Source of the DNA: Flavobacteriia bacterium
GTDB taxonomy: Bacteria > Bacteroidota > Bacteroidia > Flavobacteriales > Weeksellaceae
DNA length: 64,000 nucleotides
Direction of reading: 5' to 3'
Assembly: GCA_019455045.1 (NCBI GenBank)
Contig: JACFND010000001.1
Span: forward strand, 22,023-86,022
The notes beneath the pieces are model-generated. The model had not been told where the DNA came from. It did not search any database and saw nothing but the letters and a program-made list of their open reading frames with translations. Positions 23,739 through 47,547 of the stretch are shown piece after piece. The position numbers and the translations under genes were made by a program. Positions within the stretch are counted from its first letter, which is position 1. The number at the start of each line of letters is the position of its first letter.

Positions 23739-24146
23739 CTAATTCCTGAACTGTGGGCAGATTTTGCATAATATACTCTCTTTGCTTAATTGTCCACCAA
23801 CTTGGTAAACAATTGAATCTCCCTCACTCTCAGACTCATTTTGAATTTGTCCACCAGCTTGGTAAACAAATTCGGAATCTTTATAAAACGAGTAAAATCG
23901 CTGCATAGCAAACAGATTTGATCGTGAGAAACCTTTGGTGTCAGGTAATTCACGTTTTAAATCTTTCGACATTTGTTCAACAATTTTACTTCCCCAACCG
24001 AAACTGTTTTGTTTTTCAGCAATATCTTTTCCAATGCTCCAATACAGAGAAATCATTTCAGCATTTACAGCCAGGCCCGCCTTAATCTGTGAAGATCTGA
24101 TGCGTTGTTTCAGCTCCTGAATCCAATCAATGTATTCTCTATCCAT
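23739..24146 (-). pseudogene. N-terminal fragment of a DUF1016/YhcG-family protein; PD-(D/E)XK nuclease domain absent
   Basis: ELKQRIRSSQIKAGLAVNAEMISLYWSIG...GWG...KGFSRSNLFAMQRFY; stops at 135 aa with no continuation seen in other frames. Confidence 0.75.
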
Positions 24147-24218: not shown

Positions 24219-25466
24219 TTATTCCAAATTATACTGTTTGATTTTTCGATAAAGCGTCCTTTCCGAAATTCCGAGTTCCTCTGCCGCAGATCTTCTTTTT
24301 CCTTTGTGTTTTTCCAACGCCTTTCTGATCATTTCCATCTCATTGTCCTGAAGCGAAAGCGATTCTTTCTGAACATTGACTTCCTCATAATCATGATCCG
24401 GATATTCGGTATAATCCTGAACGATATGGGTTGGAACCTCGTCTTTCTGATAAATCTGCATGGCACCGTAATCTCTTTCAGATTCAGTCTTTTCACGAAT
24501 CACACGCTGAAGCGTTTCAAGATTTCCTGACGAAATATTTTCCTTATTATGAATCAGATCCAAAGTCAAAGATCTCAAATCGTTCAGATCTTTTTTCATA
24601 TCCAAAAGAAATTTGAAAAGCAGTTCTCTTTCCAGATGATCGGAATTGTCAGATTTCCCCGGAATCAGCGCCGGAACGCTTGACTGATAAGGCAGATAAC
24701 TTCTGATTTTTTCGGCCGAAATATTTCTGTCTTTTTCAACCACCGATATTTCTTCTGCAAAATTTCTGAGCTGTCTGATGTTTCCCGGCCACGGATAGTT
24801 CATCAGATACTGAACCGCTTCGGGCTGAAGCTCCAAAGGCGGCATTCTGTATTTTTCGGCAAAATCGGCTGCAAACTTTCTGAACAGCAGCGGAATATCA
24901 TTTTTTCTTTCGCGCAAAGCCGGCATATTGATTTCAACCGTATTGAGACGATAATAAAGGTCTTCTCTGAATTTCCCTTTTTCAATCGCTTCTTCCATCT
25001 TCACATTGGTTGCCGCCACAACTCTCACATCCGTTTTTTGAATTTCGGAAGAACCGACTTTCATAAATTCGCCGCTTTCCAAAACCCTGAGCAGTCGCAC
25101 CTGAGTGGGAGCAGGCAGCTCACCGACTTCATCCAAAAAGATGGTTCCTTTGTCGGCTACTTCAAAATATCCTTTTCTGGTTGCAGTCGCACCGGTAAAG
25201 GCTCCTTTCTCATGACCAAAAAGTTCTGAATCGATTGTTCCTTCCGGAATTGCACCGCAATTGACTGCGATATAATTATTGTGTTTCCGATGAGATTGAG
25301 AATGTATGATTTTTGGAATAAATTCCTTTCCGACACCGCTCTCTCCACTGACCAAAACCGAAATATCGGTCGGTGCCACCTGGATTGCTTTTTCAAGCGC
25401 ACGGTTCAATCCCGGATCATTTCCGATGATTGAGAATCTTTGTTTTATGGTTTGTAAATTATCCAT
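24219..25466 (-). CDS. Sigma-54-interacting AAA+ activator with Fis-type HTH and no N-terminal sensor domain
   Basis: GESGVGKE Walker A, GAFTGA, FLDEVGE Walker B, WPGNIRQL, C-terminal AAEELGISERTLYRK. Confidence 0.93.
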   Translation of the reverse strand: MDNLQTIKQRFSIIGNDPGLNRALEKAIQVAPTDISVLVSGESGVGKEFIPKIIHSQSHRKHNNYIAVNCGAIPEGTIDSELFGHEKGAFTGATATRKGYFEVADKGTIFLDEVGELPAPTQVRLLRVLESGEFMKVGSSEIQKTDVRVVAATNVKMEEAIEKGKFREDLYYRLNTVEINMPALRERKNDIPLLFRKFAADFAEKYRMPPLELQPEAVQYLMNYPWPGNIRQLRNFAEEISVVEKDRNISAEKIRSYLPYQSSVPALIPGKSDNSDHLERELLFKFLLDMKKDLNDLRSLTLDLIHNKENISSGNLETLQRVIREKTESERDYGAMQIYQKDEVPTHIVQDYTEYPDHDYEEVNVQKESLSLQDNEMEMIRKALEKHKGKRRSAAEELGISERTLYRKIKQYNLE

Positions 25467-25478
25467 TAAGTCTTTTTT

Positions 25479-25565
25479 GTTTCAGGTTTCAGGTTTCATG
25501 TTGGGTTTCAAGTTTCAGGTTTCAAGTTTCATGTTGGAGTTTCAGGTTTCAAGTTTTAGGTTTGG
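25479..25565 (+). repeat. Tandem heptamer array GTTTCA(G/A/T), about 10 units with two short interruptions
   Basis: gtttcag gtttcag gtttcat gttgg gtttcaa gtttcag gtttcaa gtttcat gttgga gtttcag gtttcaa gttttag. Confidence 0.95.
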
Positions 25566-25581
25566 TTAATAACAATTAGTT

Positions 25582-25977
25582 TTAAGGTTTTTGAAATTTA
25601 CTTCCTTTGATGTCAGTTTTGTTCAGATATGAAATAAATTTTTTTATTTTTCCGCTTAAATTTTCAAAATCGTTTTTCAATTCGTTTAGAGTTTCCTCTC
25701 TGATGTATTCATAGTCAAAAGCTCTGTATAATTGTGATCTTGTTTCTCCTGCTGAACCTTTTGCAACAGCCAAAAACTGTCTGAATTCAAGATTTCCGTC
25801 TCTTTCAAAACCTTCAGCGATATTGTCCATAATTGAACCCGATGAAGATTTTATCTGTTCTTTAAATTTGAAATCCGTTTTAAATTCGGTTTCATTTGTT
25901 AGTTTGTAAATGACTTTTGCAAGCCTTCTCGCTTCCTGCCAGATTTCCAAGTCTTCAAATCTTCTGATTGTCGCCAT
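25582..25977 (-). CDS. Four-helix-bundle protein (23S rRNA intervening-sequence protein family)
   Basis: FEDLEIWQEAR, QIKSSSGSIMDNIAEGFER, FLAVAKGSAGETRSQLY; visibly AT-rich. Confidence 0.93.
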   Translation of the reverse strand: MATIRRFEDLEIWQEARRLAKVIYKLTNETEFKTDFKFKEQIKSSSGSIMDNIAEGFERDGNLEFRQFLAVAKGSAGETRSQLYRAFDYEYIREETLNELKNDFENLSGKIKKFISYLNKTDIKGSKFQKP

Positions 25978-26003
25978 AACTTTAAATATTTATTCACTGA
26001 ATT

Positions 26004-26034
26004 AACTTGAAACCTGAAACCTGAAACTTGAAAC
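26004..26034 (-). repeat. Heptamer array (4 units), inverted relative to 25479-25565
   Basis: Plus strand aac ttgaaac ctgaaac ctgaaac ttgaaac; reverse complement gtttcaagtttcaggtttcaggtttcaagtt. Confidence 0.95.
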
Positions 26035-26037
26035 AAA

Positions 26038-27477
26038 CTATATCATTTCCCCCAAAAGTGTCGCCGAAGTACAACTGTCAGCTCTGACCATTACAAAATC
26101 CCCGACTTTCGTCCCTTCGGTTTTTGGGAAAACCATTACCGCATTTTGTGAAATCCGGCCATACCAGAAATTTTCATCGCGTTTGCTGTTTCCTTCGATC
26201 AGGACTTCGTGAACTTTTCCGAGATAAGATTCCAGTCTTTGTTTTGAATGGACCTGCTGCAGATCGATGATCTCGGTCAGTCTTCTCTTTTTGACCTCTT
26301 CAGGTACATCGTCTGCCATCTTTTTGTGTGCCGGTGTTCCCGGTCTTTCTGAATAGGCGAACATATAACCAAAATCGTATTTCACATATTCCATCAGACT
26401 CAGCGTTTCTTTGTGTTCCTCTTCGGTCTCACCGCAGAATCCGGCGATGATGTCGTGTGAAAGTGCAATATTCGGAACGATCGATTTGATTTTGTCAATC
26501 AGCTCAATGTATTCTTCACGGGTATGCTGTCTGTTCATCCTTTTCAAAACTGCAGTACTTCCGGATTGGAAAGGCAGGTGGATGGATTTACAGATATTGT
26601 CGTGTTTTGCCATGGTTCTGAGTACGCTTTCGTGCATATCCTGAGGATTTGAAGTCGAAAAACGAATTCTCATTCCGGGCACTGCAACAGCAACTCTGTC
26701 AAGCAATTCAGCAAAATCAACCGAATTCTCTTTTTGTTCTTCTGTTGCTTTGTCAAAATCTTTTTTCAGACCGCCGCCGTACCACAGATACGAATCCACA
26801 TTCTGACCGAGCAGTGTGATTTCCCTGTAACCGTGATTCCACAGATTGATGCATTCGTTGATGATCGATTCGGGTTCGCGGCTTCTTTCTCTTCCTCGTG
26901 TAAACGGAACCACACAGAAAGTACACATATTGTCGCATCCGCGGGTGATCGATACAAAGGCAGTCACACCGTTTCCGCCCAGACGGACAGGATTCAGGTC
27001 GGCATAAGTTTCTTCTTTTGACAGTATCACATTGATCGCCTGTCTGCCGTCATCCACATCTTCAAGCAGTTTGGGCAGATCGCGGTAGGCATCGGGTCCG
27101 GCGACCAGATCGACCACTTTTTCTTCTTCGAGCAGTTTGGTTTTCAGTCTTTCTGCCATACAGCCCAAGACGCCGATTTTCAGACTTGGTTTTTTTCTTT
27201 TCAGCGCATTGAATTCTGTCAGTCTTTTTCTGACGGTGTCTTCCGCTTTGTGACGGATCGCGCAGGTATTAATCATGATCAGGTCTGCTTCCTCCAGTTC
27301 TGAAGTGGTATTGTATCCGTTTTCAAGCAGGATTGAGGCTACGATTTCAGAATCCGAAAAGTTCATCTGACAACCGTAACTTTCTATAAAAAGTTTTTTT
27401 GAGTTGCCTTCTTTTCCTTCCAGCACCATTGATTCGCCCTGTCTTGATTCGTCTGTATCTTTTATGTTTGATTGCAT
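26038..27477 (-). CDS. miaB: tRNA-2-methylthio-N6-dimethylallyladenosine synthase
   Basis: SYGCQMN, NTCAIR, GCMAERL, radical-SAM [11 protein letters not shown]-terminal TRAM-like domain. Confidence 0.97.
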
Positions 27478-44635: not shown

Positions 44636-46264
44636 ATGAAAAAAATACTGTTCATCCTTTCAACTTTTCTGATTCTTTCGTGTTCAACCAAAAAATCAGT
44701 CGATCTGCTCGTTAAAAATGCAGTGGTTTATACGGTTGACAAAAATTTTGACACCGCCACAGCTTTTGTGGTCAGTGGCGGAAAAATCGTTGAAGTCGGA
44801 AATTCGGAAGAACTCGAATCAAAATACAAACCCAAAGAGATTTATGATGCTGAAGGCAAAACCATCGTTCCCGGACTGATCGATGCACATGCCCATCTGT
44901 ACGGTCTCGGACTTTATATGCAGGCGGTCGATCTGACAGGAACCAAAAGCGCTGATGAAGTAATCGATCGTGTGGTTGAATTTCAAAAAGAACATCAGCT
45001 GGATTATATTCAGGGAAGAGGCTGGGATCAGAACGATTGGGAAGACAAGGAATTTCCGACCAATGAAAGACTGAACGAATTGTTTCCCGATACGCCGGTT
45101 GCGCTCAGAAGAGTGGACGGACATGCGCTTTTTGTGAATACAAAAGCCTTGGAACTCGCCGGAATTACAAAAGACTCAAAAATTCCGGGCGGAGAAATCA
45201 TTTTGAAAAACGGCGAACCGACCGGTGTACTGATCGACAATGCGATGGAGCCGGTCAATGCAACCATTCCCGCACCGACCAAAGAATTTTCGACCAATGC
45301 GCTTCTTGATGCCGAAAAAGTTGCACTCTCTTTCGGACTGACCACTGTTGACGATGCCGGACTCGATCCCGAAATCATCGATCTGATCGACGATCTGCAG
45401 CGCGAAGGAAAAATGAAACTCAGGATTTATGCGATGGTGAGCAATACACCCGCAAATCTTGAATATTATCTCAAAAAAGGAATTTATAAAACCGACCGAC
45501 TGGATGTTCGTTCGTTCAAAGTTTATGTGGATGGTGCACTTGGTTCGAGAGGCGCCGCACTCAGAAAAGAATACAGCGATCGTCACGGTCATTTCGGAAT
45601 CATGATTACGCCTTCCGACAGTCTTGAAACTTTGGCTGCAATGATTGCAAAATCCGGTTTTCAGATGAACAGCCATGCGATTGGAGATTCTGCGACCATT
45701 TCGGTTTTGAGAGATTACAAAAAAGCACTTGAAGGACAAAACGACCGTCGTTGGCGGGTTGAACACGCACAGATTATTTCGCCGGAAGGTTTTGATTATT
45801 TTTCACACAACATACTTCCGTCGGTTCAGCCGACCCATGCAACCAGCGATATGTATTGGGCAGAAGACCGTTTGGGTGCAGACCGAATGAAAGGCGCTTA
45901 TGCATACAAAACATTGCTTGACAAAACAGGAATCATCGCTTTGGGAACTGATTTCCCGGTGGAGCATGTCAGTCCGTTTTATACATTTTATGCAGCGGTT
46001 GTCAGAAAAGATCTGAAGAATTATCCCGAAAACGGTTTTCAGATGAAAGACGCGCTCAGCCGTGAAGAAGCTTTGAGAGGAATGACGATTTGGGCGGCTT
46101 ATGCCAATTTTGAGGAAAATGAAAAAGGAAGCATCGAAGCCGGAAAATATGCTGATTTTACGGTTTTGGACAAAGACATCATGAAAGCAGACGAAAATGA
46201 TTTGCCCAATATCAAAGCGGTTGCCACCTTTATCAATGGTGAAAAAGTTTATGAACTGAAATAA
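44636..46264 (+). CDS. YtcJ-like metal-dependent amidohydrolase, lipoprotein
   Basis: Lipobox ILSC, PGLIDAHAH, HAIGD, RVEHAQ, GTDFP, GSIEAGKYADF. Confidence 0.9.
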   Translation: MKKILFILSTFLILSCSTKKSVDLLVKNAVVYTVDKNFDTATAFVVSGGKIVEVGNSEELESKYKPKEIYDAEGKTIVPGLIDAHAHLYGLGLYMQAVDLTGTKSADEVIDRVVEFQKEHQLDYIQGRGWDQNDWEDKEFPTNERLNELFPDTPVALRRVDGHALFVNTKALELAGITKDSKIPGGEIILKNGEPTGVLIDNAMEPVNATIPAPTKEFSTNALLDAEKVALSFGLTTVDDAGLDPEIIDLIDDLQREGKMKLRIYAMVSNTPANLEYYLKKGIYKTDRLDVRSFKVYVDGALGSRGAALRKEYSDRHGHFGIMITPSDSLETLAAMIAKSGFQMNSHAIGDSATISVLRDYKKALEGQNDRRWRVEHAQIISPEGFDYFSHNILPSVQPTHATSDMYWAEDRLGADRMKGAYAYKTLLDKTGIIALGTDFPVEHVSPFYTFYAAVVRKDLKNYPENGFQMKDALSREEALRGMTIWAAYANFEENEKGSIEAGKYADFTVLDKDIMKADENDLPNIKAVATFINGEKVYELK

Positions 46265-46328
46265 TTTTAATTTTTCTTGAAATTTAAATCACTTTCCGTC
46301 AATGTTTTGGGAATAAATTTTTCAAAAC

Positions 46329-46356
46329 TGTCACATTTTTAATTTCAGTCTCGTCT
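46329..46356 (+). promoter_or_regulatory. Candidate ECF-type promoter (TGTCAC-N17-CGTCT) upstream of the ECF sigma gene
   Basis: Resembles ECF -35/-10 elements, about 20 nt before the GTG start; inference. Confidence 0.4.
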
Positions 46357-46376
46357 TATATACAGAAACATGAATT

Positions 46377-46943
46377 GTGAAAATCATTTCAATCCATAAA
46401 AACCGAAAAACCGAAGAGATGGTCAGACTGCTGATCAAAGGCGACCGGCTGGCTCAGAAGGAGGTGTTTGAAAGATATTCGCCAAAGATGCTGAGTGTCT
46501 GCCGGACTTATACCGGCGATCTGCACAATGCCGAAGACTGTATGATCAGGGCATTTGTAAAGGTTTTTAAAAGCATTTCTTCATACAGTTCCATCGGCAG
46601 TCTGGAAGGCTGGATCAGAAGGATTATGGTGAATGAATGTCTTGATTTTCTGAGAGCAAATAAAAATTTTGTGTTTCTGGATGAAATTGATTTTGTCGAA
46701 GAACCGGAAGATGAACAGCAGGATTTGAGCGGTATTGATGCCGGCGAACTGCTTGACAGTCTGCCCGAAAATTACAGAATGGTATTTAACCTTTTTGTTT
46801 TGGAAGATTATTCGCACAAAGAAATTTCAAAAATTCTCAACATCGATGAAATGACTTCGAGAACACAATTGTCGAGAGCAAAAAAACGATTGAGAGAAAT
46901 CATTGTAGAACGTAAACAGATCAGAGATGAAAACCGGGCTTGA
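46377..46943 (+). CDS. ECF sigma-70 factor
   Basis: AEDCMIRAF, LEGWIRRIMVN region 2; LPENYRMVFNL...SHKEISKIL...SRTQLSRAK region 4. Confidence 0.93.
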   Translation: MKIISIHKNRKTEEMVRLLIKGDRLAQKEVFERYSPKMLSVCRTYTGDLHNAEDCMIRAFVKVFKSISSYSSIGSLEGWIRRIMVNECLDFLRANKNFVFLDEIDFVEEPEDEQQDLSGIDAGELLDSLPENYRMVFNLFVLEDYSHKEISKILNIDEMTSRTQLSRAKKRLREIIVERKQIRDENRA

Positions 46944-47547
46944 CAAAGAAATTAAAAAACAGCTGAATGAAAGAGAGATTCAGCCTTCCGCCGACGCTTG
47001 GCAGAAGCTGGAAGGAATATTGGATGAACAGACCGGCACAAAAAAATCGGGCAGAAAAATATTTCTGATTCTGATTTCGGCAGCTGCGTCGGTACTGCTG
47101 ATTGTAGGTTTGCTGTTGTTTGTAAAATCAGAAAATGAAACACCAAATATTGAATCCAATTTTGTTCAGACAGAAGAACCTTTAAAAGAAGAAATTCAAT
47201 CTGATCAAACCGAAACAATTGAAACTGAAGAACCGGTTTTGGTGAATTCAAATCCTGAAATTAATAATCAAAAAGTTCCAAAAGAGAAGACCATCAAAAT
47301 TCAAAAACCGGAAATTCCACAGGAAGTTGCAATTGAGAAAATTGAAGAACCAAAATTGGAAAAACCAATTGTTGAAGAAGTCAAACCGATGATTGCGCAG
47401 CAGAATGATTCGGTTCAGAAACCCAAAAAGAAAACAGATTATACCGATCCGAACATGCTGCTCTATTCGATTGAACACAATCAGTCGGTCAAACAGGATG
47501 AATCAAATTCAAAACTGGTAATCATCGATTTCAACAAAGAAAAATAA
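46927..47547 (+). CDS. Single-pass membrane protein, probable anti-sigma factor
   Basis: Overlaps the sigma gene; N-terminal REIQPSADAWQKL, one TM helix, charged extracytoplasmic tail. Confidence 0.6.
   Translation: MKTGLDKEIKKQLNEREIQPSADAWQKLEGILDEQTGTKKSGRKIFLILISAAASVLLIVGLLLFVKSENETPNIESNFVQTEEPLKEEIQSDQTETIETEEPVLVNSNPEINNQKVPKEKTIKIQKPEIPQEVAIEKIEEPKLEKPIVEEVKPMIAQQNDSVQKPKKKTDYTDPNMLLYSIEHNQSVKQDESNSKLVIIDFNKEK

Follow-up and report, generated by a model that had tools for sequence, protein, structure and literature searches.

Here we describe a small genetic cassette that fills the spacer between miaB and the gene for a sigma-54-dependent transcriptional activator in a Flavobacteriia bacterium (Weeksellaceae; assembly GCA_019455045.1). 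The DNA analysed is a stretch of 64,000 nucleotides of contig JACFND010000001.1 (positions 22,023 to 86,022), hereafter the window, whose coordinates are used throughout unless another contig is named. The cassette holds a gene for a four-helix-bundle protein of 131 aa, bracketed by two arrays of tandem 7-nt units in opposite orientations, and forms a 570-nt insert between the flanking genes. All genes of the region are on the minus strand and the features are, in sense order:

26038-27477, minus strand: miaB, tRNA methylthiotransferase, the upstream cistron (TIGR01574, 446 bits against a cut-off of 355)
26038-26040, minus strand: stop codon of miaB (list of open reading frames, ORFs)
26035-26037, minus strand: spacer of 3 nt (TTT) between the miaB stop and the 5' array (sequence)
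26004-26034, or to 26037 with the TTT, minus strand: 5' arm, GTTTCAR x4.4, G/T-rich (Tandem Repeats Finder, TRF; inverted-repeat search; RNA folds)
25978-26003, minus strand: A/T-rich spacer of 26 nt from the 5' arm to the ATG, the four-helix gene's own leader (sequence)
25582-25977, minus strand: four-helix-bundle gene, 131 aa, PF05635/TIGR02436 (hidden Markov model (HMM) matches, AlphaFold2, Foldseek)
25564-25581, minus strand: spacer of 18 nt from the four-helix stop to the 3' array (sequence)
25479-25563, or from 25476 as paired arm, minus strand: 3' array, CTGAAAC/TTGAAAC x about 12, C/A-rich (TRF periods 7, 14 and 33; direct and inverted repeats)
25467-25478, minus strand: spacer of 12 nt from the 3' array to the next ATG (sequence)
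24219-25466, minus strand: sigma-54-dependent transcriptional activator, the downstream cistron (PF00158, 226 bits, and HTH_8)
25464-25466, minus strand: ATG of the activator (sequence)

A preliminary description of this DNA had proposed that the gene is bracketed by opposed GTTTCA(G/A) arrays, which was confirmed by TRF and a repeat finder. At period 7, TRF counts 12.6 copies for the array at 25479-25563 and 4.4 for that at 26004-26034. The arm pair 25505-25535 and 26004-26034 is 31 nt long, its members are 468 nt apart, and 29 of 31 positions (94%) are complementary, as first described; the alternative registers claimed at the time also exist, since the 5' arm can pair with 25476-25502 and with 25538-25562. 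The spacing was likewise correct, with 3 nt between the miaB stop and the 5' array and 12 nt from the 3' array to the activator ATG. The distal array was rightly recognised but its count of about 10 units does not hold: there are about 12, better seen as a 33-nt block repeated approximately 2.5 times; every copy can pair with the lone 5' arm, which thus has three possible partners. This block was amplified recently, given that the 3' array of the closest relative (G008) has just about 2.5 heptamer units compared with about 12 in the window. The three registers would leave free leaders of differing length ahead of the activator ATG. The double-unit pattern GTTTCARGTTTCAR, with at most one mismatch, occurs 10 times in the window, always within these two arrays; the chance expectation from shuffles is 0.25 and none of 100 shuffles reached 10.

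PF05635 is the sole Pfam family matched by the 131-aa protein (117 bits, cut-off 33.8), which also matches TIGR02436 with 106.6 bits (cut-off 24). Its AlphaFold2 model (predicted local distance difference test, pLDDT, 90.7) shows four long helices followed by a disordered, basic and partly conserved tail (residues 123-131). Foldseek aligned the model to 2GSC (template-modelling (TM) scores 0.79/0.91) and 2RLD (0.72/0.87), relatives in the PDB with five chains per entry. The earlier proposal of an Avd-related fold is borne out by a match to Avd structure 4DWL (TM 0.70/0.84, probability 1.00, E = 0.045), and ribonucleoprotein structures of diversity-generating retroelements (DGRs) were matched as well. 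Avd and the window protein have the four-helix fold in common, and the PDB relatives have five chains, but sequence identity is about 10% and the window cassette comes without reverse transcriptase, template or variable repeats. A role in a DGR or with a reverse transcriptase is ruled out by the fact that RVT_1 is matched nowhere in the source genome, and a defence system was considered as well, for which PADLOC gave no match. To our knowledge the function of PF05635/TIGR02436, a very common family, is known only in DGRs. Bacteroidota genomes that carry it have one to seventeen copies. Thirty members of the window's subfamily have 32 invariant columns. In F. psychrophilum a four-helix gene is transcribed (PMC5787105).

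The source genome (2.59 Mb, 108 contigs) contains six PF05635 genes and all six sit between short tandem arrays. Inverted arms are visible in five, one downstream side having been lost at a contig end. The array that follows the upstream stop is G/T-rich and the array before the next ATG, where assembled, is C/A-rich. Each copy has a different unit: AGTAATT, GTTTCAG, GTGTTGG, GTAGTTGA, ATTTTAA and GTTAGAA. Inverted pairs were then collected genome-wide by array-against-array alignment, for arrays up to 3 kb apart. Of the five pairs found, three enclose four-helix genes and two enclose nothing but short non-coding stretches; in the source genome, inverted array pairs enclose no further gene family.

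For a broader comparison the upstream flank of each cassette was aligned to the reverse complement of its downstream flank, with mismatched pairs as control. The median arm-complementarity score for 85 intact cassettes from 29 Flavobacteriales genomes is 29, compared with 16 for the control; 56 of the 85 exceed the 95th percentile of the control and 39 the 99th. Period 7 or 14 is found in about 70-80% of the arms with clear periodicity, 8 and 10-11 being minorities. Distances were taken from 108 cassettes whose arms are clear. The median gap is 3 nt from the upstream stop to the 5' arm (interquartile range 0-7) and 9 nt from the 3' arm to the next ATG (interquartile range 4-19), and the median loop is 430 nt; with 3 nt, 12 nt and 468 nt, the window copy is typical of the class. 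A subset of 60 cassettes has 5' arms with 22% G and 7% C and 3' arms with the reverse, a median arm of 31 nt or about 4.4 units, and a median distance of 25 nt from arm to ATG. The genes on both sides are on the cassette's strand in 139 of 151 intact cassettes (binomial p = 1e-28 versus 0.5), and 105 have more G than C in the 5' flank and more C than G in the 3' flank. An invertible switch, one of the candidates considered, is ruled out by this co-orientation and composition. The question whether four-helix genes are generally flanked by inverted 7-mer arrays, raised in the preliminary description, can therefore be answered positively, here and in other phyla (see below). We conclude that the cassette is a widespread heritable unit, with a PF05635 ORF within two inverted short-repeat arrays, mostly of 7 nt, in operon spacers. 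Of the roughly 150 copies studied, most have this gene-in-hairpin packaging.

How the arms relate to the protein was studied in the window's subfamily. A search with the window protein gave 80 named loci at 55-81% identity, including loci of Flavobacterium, Planktosalinus, Zunongwangia, Paenimyroides, Kaistella, Chryseobacterium, Lutibacter, Bacteroidales and Chitinophagaceae. The subfamily is found at few recurrent junctions and always with GTTTMAR-type arms. By junction, the arm unit is GTTTCAR at sufC/sufD and at miaB/activator, GTTTAAR at sufB/sufC, and about 10-11 nt long (TTGTTTAAAA) at a fourth junction. Variants of the unit are matched in both arms, as in GTTCAAA/TTTGAAC, GATTTCAA/TTGAAATC and CGTTCCGTG/CACGGAACG. 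At unit position 5 of the window subfamily, 13 changes are of the same kind in both arms versus three in one arm only. When arms of different cassettes are compared, complementarity rises from 14.5 at less than 45% protein identity to 25-28 at more than 65%. Gene and arms are shown to be inherited as a single unit, in which the arms co-vary.

Within the genus, the subfamily gene lies at sufB/sufC in four congeners, elsewhere in one and beside a gene for a GNAT acetyltransferase in another. One junction can also host different subfamilies. The junction with an upstream gene ending in ...EENWN and a downstream gene starting with MINLFN... harbours two four-helix subfamilies in different genomes (L051, L053 and L058 versus L176, L180, L196, L199, L210 and L211). 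Their arms are unrelated: one group has CTAAGNNN octamers, the other TTGTTTAAAA units. This suggests that cassettes were replaced there or that the junction was used more than once.

That the arm units track the subfamily would fit a protein that reads the repeats, short of proof. The arrays might accordingly be seen as sites bound by the cognate pentamer, each subunit of which would contact about one 7-nt unit; the protein would thereby regulate itself and its neighbours or would spread the repeats, comparable to repetitive extragenic palindromes (REPs) and their REP-associated tyrosine transposases (RAYTs) or to TRAP and its RNA repeats. The unit sequence itself is kept within the subfamily across orders, GTTTMAR at 55-81% protein identity, and other subfamilies in the same genome have other units, although this conservation could also stem from descent and homogenisation. 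The median arm of about 4.4 units compares with a pentameric PDB relative, and the Avd-like fold and the conserved basic tail agree with binding. Three tandem GTTTMAR units are hit 11-54 times in all eight congeners with a gene of the subfamily and 0-2 times in eight of the 13 without (Mann-Whitney p = 0.004), a correlation that ignores kinship; two congeners without the cognate gene have 44 and 58 hits. Moreover, the abundant classes GTCTCAT, TACAATA and GGATGGA have no four-helix partner in the source genome. Binding of this kind, judged from sequence patterns, is in our opinion unlikely to be the role of the arrays, while it would be compatible with the RNA-level reading that we favour below.

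The history of the cassette was followed at the orthologous miaB/activator junction in 18 congeners and two genomes from neighbouring genera, 20 relatives in all. Only one of them, the closest, has the same cassette, with a frameshifted gene and shorter arms. Four have spacers of 22-46 nt, one has a 74-nt hairpin with a CTGAAAC array and eight have other short non-coding spacers of 85-264 nt. In the remaining six (L035-L038, L042 and L046) a gene for a GNAT (RimJ-like) acetyltransferase of about 187 aa replaces the four-helix gene; these junctions often have CTGAAAC-type units before the next start and some have a small conserved ORF (MEIIFATKEEN...). Congener L086 has a four-helix gene followed by a GNAT gene.

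At the same junction the cassette is also present in four genera of Flavobacteriaceae, whose four-helix proteins share 70-79% identity with that of the window, compared with 61-66% for MiaB and 81-85% for the activator; GTTTCAR arms persist. Since the cassette is as diverged across families as MiaB and the activator, it is approximately as old as its neighbours, and its protein is under purifying selection. The empty-site alleles that the preliminary description had proposed to look for do exist at this junction in congeners, but they are better read as losses. Pseudogene copies retain recognisable arms.

Part of this pattern could be explained when the arms act as DNA. The cassette would then be a foldback-type element, whose terminal repeats form hairpins or cruciforms for insertion, excision or gene conversion, and the RNA stem would be a by-product. 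This is in line with the presence of one subfamily at several junctions (miaB/activator, sufB/sufC, sufC/sufD and one more), with the sharing of one junction by differing subfamilies and with the arms of the pseudogene copies. The distribution in congeners is patchy, the 74-nt hairpin resembles a footprint and other junctions retain a lone 3' arm. The arm mismatches, which lack a wobble signature of the sense strand, and the equal duplex energies of sense and antisense, both detailed below, fit as well. However, the cassettes have no linked gene for a transposase, recombinase or reverse transcriptase, and no transposase domain is found in or beside that of the window. The six copies of the genome differ in protein and arms, hence there has been no recent transposition, and no target-site duplication is obvious, no direct repeat flanking the arms, although this was not a systematic search. 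The age of the cassette at miaB/activator and the strict co-orientation, needless for a pure DNA element, are further arguments against it. We therefore hold a DNA foldback element to be improbable; mobility with the arrays as its ends had been suggested earlier, and on the same grounds there is no sign of any that is recent.

The layout is not restricted to Bacteroidota. By tblastn against plasmids, cyanobacterial copies were found with the same layout in Nostoc (GGGAAAA/TTTTCCC), Geminocystis, Calothrix (GGGTGTA/TACACCC) and Pseudanabaena; one copy of Nostoc PCC 7120 has the 3' array only. On plasmid pPg_01 of Pseudanabaena galeata (45868-47054; L288) the four-helix gene lies between cas6 and cas4, with about 18 CTAAAAG units before it, about 10 CCAAAAG units after it and an inverted partner further upstream, so that direct and inverted arrays are both present. 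A copy on plasmid AZO_p2 of Azospirillum lipoferum is located inside a large subunit rRNA gene (Rfam RF02541, 874 bits) and its arms consist of degenerate GAGGACG-type heptamers.

This last copy connects the cassette to the ORF-bearing intervening sequences of 23S rRNA, known from Coxiella burnetii and Leptospira and found here also in Azospirillum. In Coxiella the intervening sequence is 428 nt long, RNase III cleaves it within its 28-bp terminal stem, and the loop carries the S23p ORF (PMC4990558); this comparison supports the match in layout that had been put forward in the preliminary description. The rRNA copies and that of the window have the same protein family in the loop, an inverted-repeat stem of about 28-31 bp and a loop of about 400-470 nt. 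They differ in that the rRNA copies are situated in helix 9, 25 or 45 of 23S rRNA and the window copy in an mRNA spacer between protein-coding genes. Cleavage by RNase III has been shown for the rRNA copies only. Furthermore, excised rRNA fragments stay joined by the ribosome, whereas mRNA cistrons would separate.

When the sense RNA of a 586-nt stretch is folded, the minimum free energy (MFE) is -120.4 kcal/mol (z = -3.5). A long stem from 26037 to 25476 closes the whole cassette in the MFE fold as well as in the centroid fold, and the predicted structures thus contain the stem of about 31 bp enclosing the ORF that had been proposed; in the MFE fold it is the 3' block nearest the activator ATG that is paired. 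Neither an intrinsic terminator nor a match to an Rfam family or rRNA was found in 25300-26200. RNase III is encoded in the source genome, at C10:92880-93518.

The reading we favour, to which we give about an even chance, is that the cassette is looped out at the RNA level or excised by RNase III. The cassette would be co-transcribed with the operon, upon which the G/U-rich 5' arm and the C/A-rich 3' arm would pair into a stem of about 30 bp with the ORF looped out. RNase III might cut this stem, by analogy with the rRNA intervening sequences; alternatively, the stem might merely hold the upstream stop beside the downstream start. By either route miaB and the activator would stay expressed despite the insert. 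Arms built from repeats could gain or lose units by slippage in either arm with pairing kept, and the pentameric protein may also bind its own repeat units.

A number of observations weigh against looping-out or excision. Cleavage by RNase III would not call for arms made of tandem units. Of the approximately 100 heptamer arrays in the genome, about 90 have no four-helix gene nearby, and the density is still 2.25 arrays per 100 kb in a congener whose only PF05635 gene is truncated. The preliminary description had named arrays that are independent of the gene or randomly oriented as evidence to the contrary: the arrays are indeed largely independent, but their orientation is non-random, with C/A-rich arrays before starts in 20 versus 6 cases and G/T-rich arrays after stops in 29 versus 12. 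Sense-RNA stems under selection usually show far more G·U than A·C. The arm mismatches have no such excess, with 60 of G·U type versus 76 of A·C type in a diverse set and 86 versus 214 in the full set, where the A·C excess derives mainly from one subfamily, that of the window (5' GTTTCAA versus 3' CTGAAAC), and is phylogenetically non-independent. It may reflect A-enrichment of the four-helix gene's own leader and is not read as proof of structure at the DNA level or in antisense. Duplex energies of sense and antisense are alike as well (p = 0.47; RNAduplex on 120-nt flanks), a comparison of low information because even shuffled sequence gives about -30 kcal/mol. Arm complementarity is clearly maintained, for which RNA, DNA or gene conversion between arms may account.

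The arrays away from four-helix genes form a large class of their own. TRF detected 102 period-7 arrays of at least 3.5 copies compared with one in the block-shuffled genome. Most are solitary or in clusters of differing units, and many are at contig ends. Unit classes include GTTAGAA, GTTTCAG, GTCTCAT/GTCTAAC, TACAATA, GGATGGA, GTGTTGG and AGTAATT. Several arrays are often strung together in one long spacer; array-rich spots include C29:1590-2240, C49:3880-4100, C72:16300-16760 and C95:1-200, and C29 has a 204-nt higher-order repeat composed of heptamer arrays. That solitary arrays are the remains of cassettes is unsupported in this genome, as a six-frame HMM search recovered the six known genes but nothing further, and solitary arrays had no remnants next to them.

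Hence it could be argued that the heptamer arrays are a general intergenic repeat class that arises by slippage, the C/A-rich ones serving as unstructured translation leaders, and that four-helix genes merely ended up in pre-existing repeat hairpins. The number of arrays, their mostly solitary occurrence and the preference of C/A-rich arrays for positions before starts agree with this. A solitary CTGAAAC-type array at C44:3861-3891, for instance, precedes the rplL start (MADLKKLAEELVNLTV...) by 39 nt, within the rplJ-rplL spacer of a highly expressed ribosomal-protein operon, which fits a leader role for C/A-rich arrays. CTGAAAC-type units also precede the activator or GNAT start in congeners without the four-helix gene, and solitary repeat hairpins exist. 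Intergenic heptamer repeats and hairpins have been described for other bacteria (PMC4679880, PMC2670836). Yet what inverted pairs enclose is always a four-helix gene or a short non-coding stretch, arm units follow the protein phylogeny over junctions and phyla, and the same architecture is present inside 23S rRNA, where there is no translation leader. In addition, two genomes of other families without PF05635 have zero period-7 arrays in 200 kb each. An origin of the cassettes from such a general class is thus, in our view, very improbable.

Some further observations were made on repeats and neighbouring genes. At C43:16437-16500 a solitary hairpin of GTTTCAG/CTGAAAC type adjoins a tRNA gene, and at C43:15990-16240 a duplicated tRNA region with ATTTTAA arrays is broken by a run of N. 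A second repeat family abuts heptamer arrays, often 16 nt from a contig end, in two versions of about 37 nt, TTAACCAAAAGTGGTCAACACTAATCAGGGATGTTCA and ATTGACTTTTTCGGTCAACCTATATCAGGGACGTACA (for instance at C95:15-55, C14:17-55, C43:17-55, C47:16-55, C9:30300-30337 and C49:4083-4150). Possibly these repeats mark one end of a multi-copy element left unresolved in the assembly. One spacer further along the operon in the window, from the activator to lptE, there is a 135-aa ORF (23739-24146, minus strand) that matches only the N-terminal domain of DUF1016 (92.8 bits), has a tail with an internal repeat (VYQAGGQIQNESESEGDSIVYQVGGQL) and looks like a truncated gene fragment.

Various known systems resemble the cassette in part. 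REPtrons consist of a small gene flanked by an inverted short repeat that is also scattered intergenically, and RAYTs are HUH/Y1 transposases. The flanked small gene, the repeat scattered over the genome and the paralogues with differing cognate repeats are shared with the cassette; the window protein, however, is a helical bundle without known catalytic motif and not an HUH (Y1) protein, and its repeats are tandem arrays rather than single palindromes. Eukaryotic foldback transposons have long terminal inverted repeats made of short tandem repeats in variable copy number and are mobilised by a transposase; the window cassette is like them in the build of its arms.

The origin and function of short tandemly repeated repetitive (STRR) sequences have been in question since about 1990. 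The cyanobacterial STRR sequences and the TAACTGA repeats of Beggiatoaceae, cyanobacteria and some Bacteroidetes are tandem 7-nt units in spacers, often just upstream of starts (PMC2670836, PMC4679880). STRR-type repeats can form hairpins between co-transcribed genes, such as hupS-hupL (PMC2670836), and transcript stability or translational coupling has been proposed as role of intergenic heptamer repeats (PMC2670836, PMC4679880). They share with the arrays studied here the tandem intergenic 7-nt units, which in this genome are in excess over chance. No link to PF05635 genes was found in the passages and terms examined in PMC2670836 and PMC4679880, whereas here inverted arrays enclose the gene and the unit follows the subfamily of that gene. 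Our literature search on PF05635/TIGR02436, on four-helix bundles with repeats and on heptamer repeats found no paper that links heptamer repeats or hairpins, or rRNA intervening sequences, to PF05635 genes outside rRNA.

A more far-reaching reading, which we offer as speculative and rather doubtful, is that PF05635 pentamers are dedicated sequence-specific partners of heptamer repeats. There would be one ancient self-insulating element, from Bacteroidota to cyanobacteria and in 23S rRNA, of which each subfamily reads its own unit, the stem removes or bridges the element, and decay or spread seeds solitary STRR-type arrays.

On a practical level the arrays break short-read assemblies, and many contigs of this genome end in arrays. 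For the organism, arrays that fill the intercistronic spacers of housekeeping operons (suf, rfb and miaB) likely affect operon expression. As for the family, its copies outside rRNA share the stem-and-loop packaging of the rRNA intervening sequences that gave it its name, with stems made of tandem heptamers. This joins three puzzles, those of the rRNA intervening sequences, the orphan Avd-like proteins and the intergenic heptamer repeats, and provides a testable handle on a widespread protein family.

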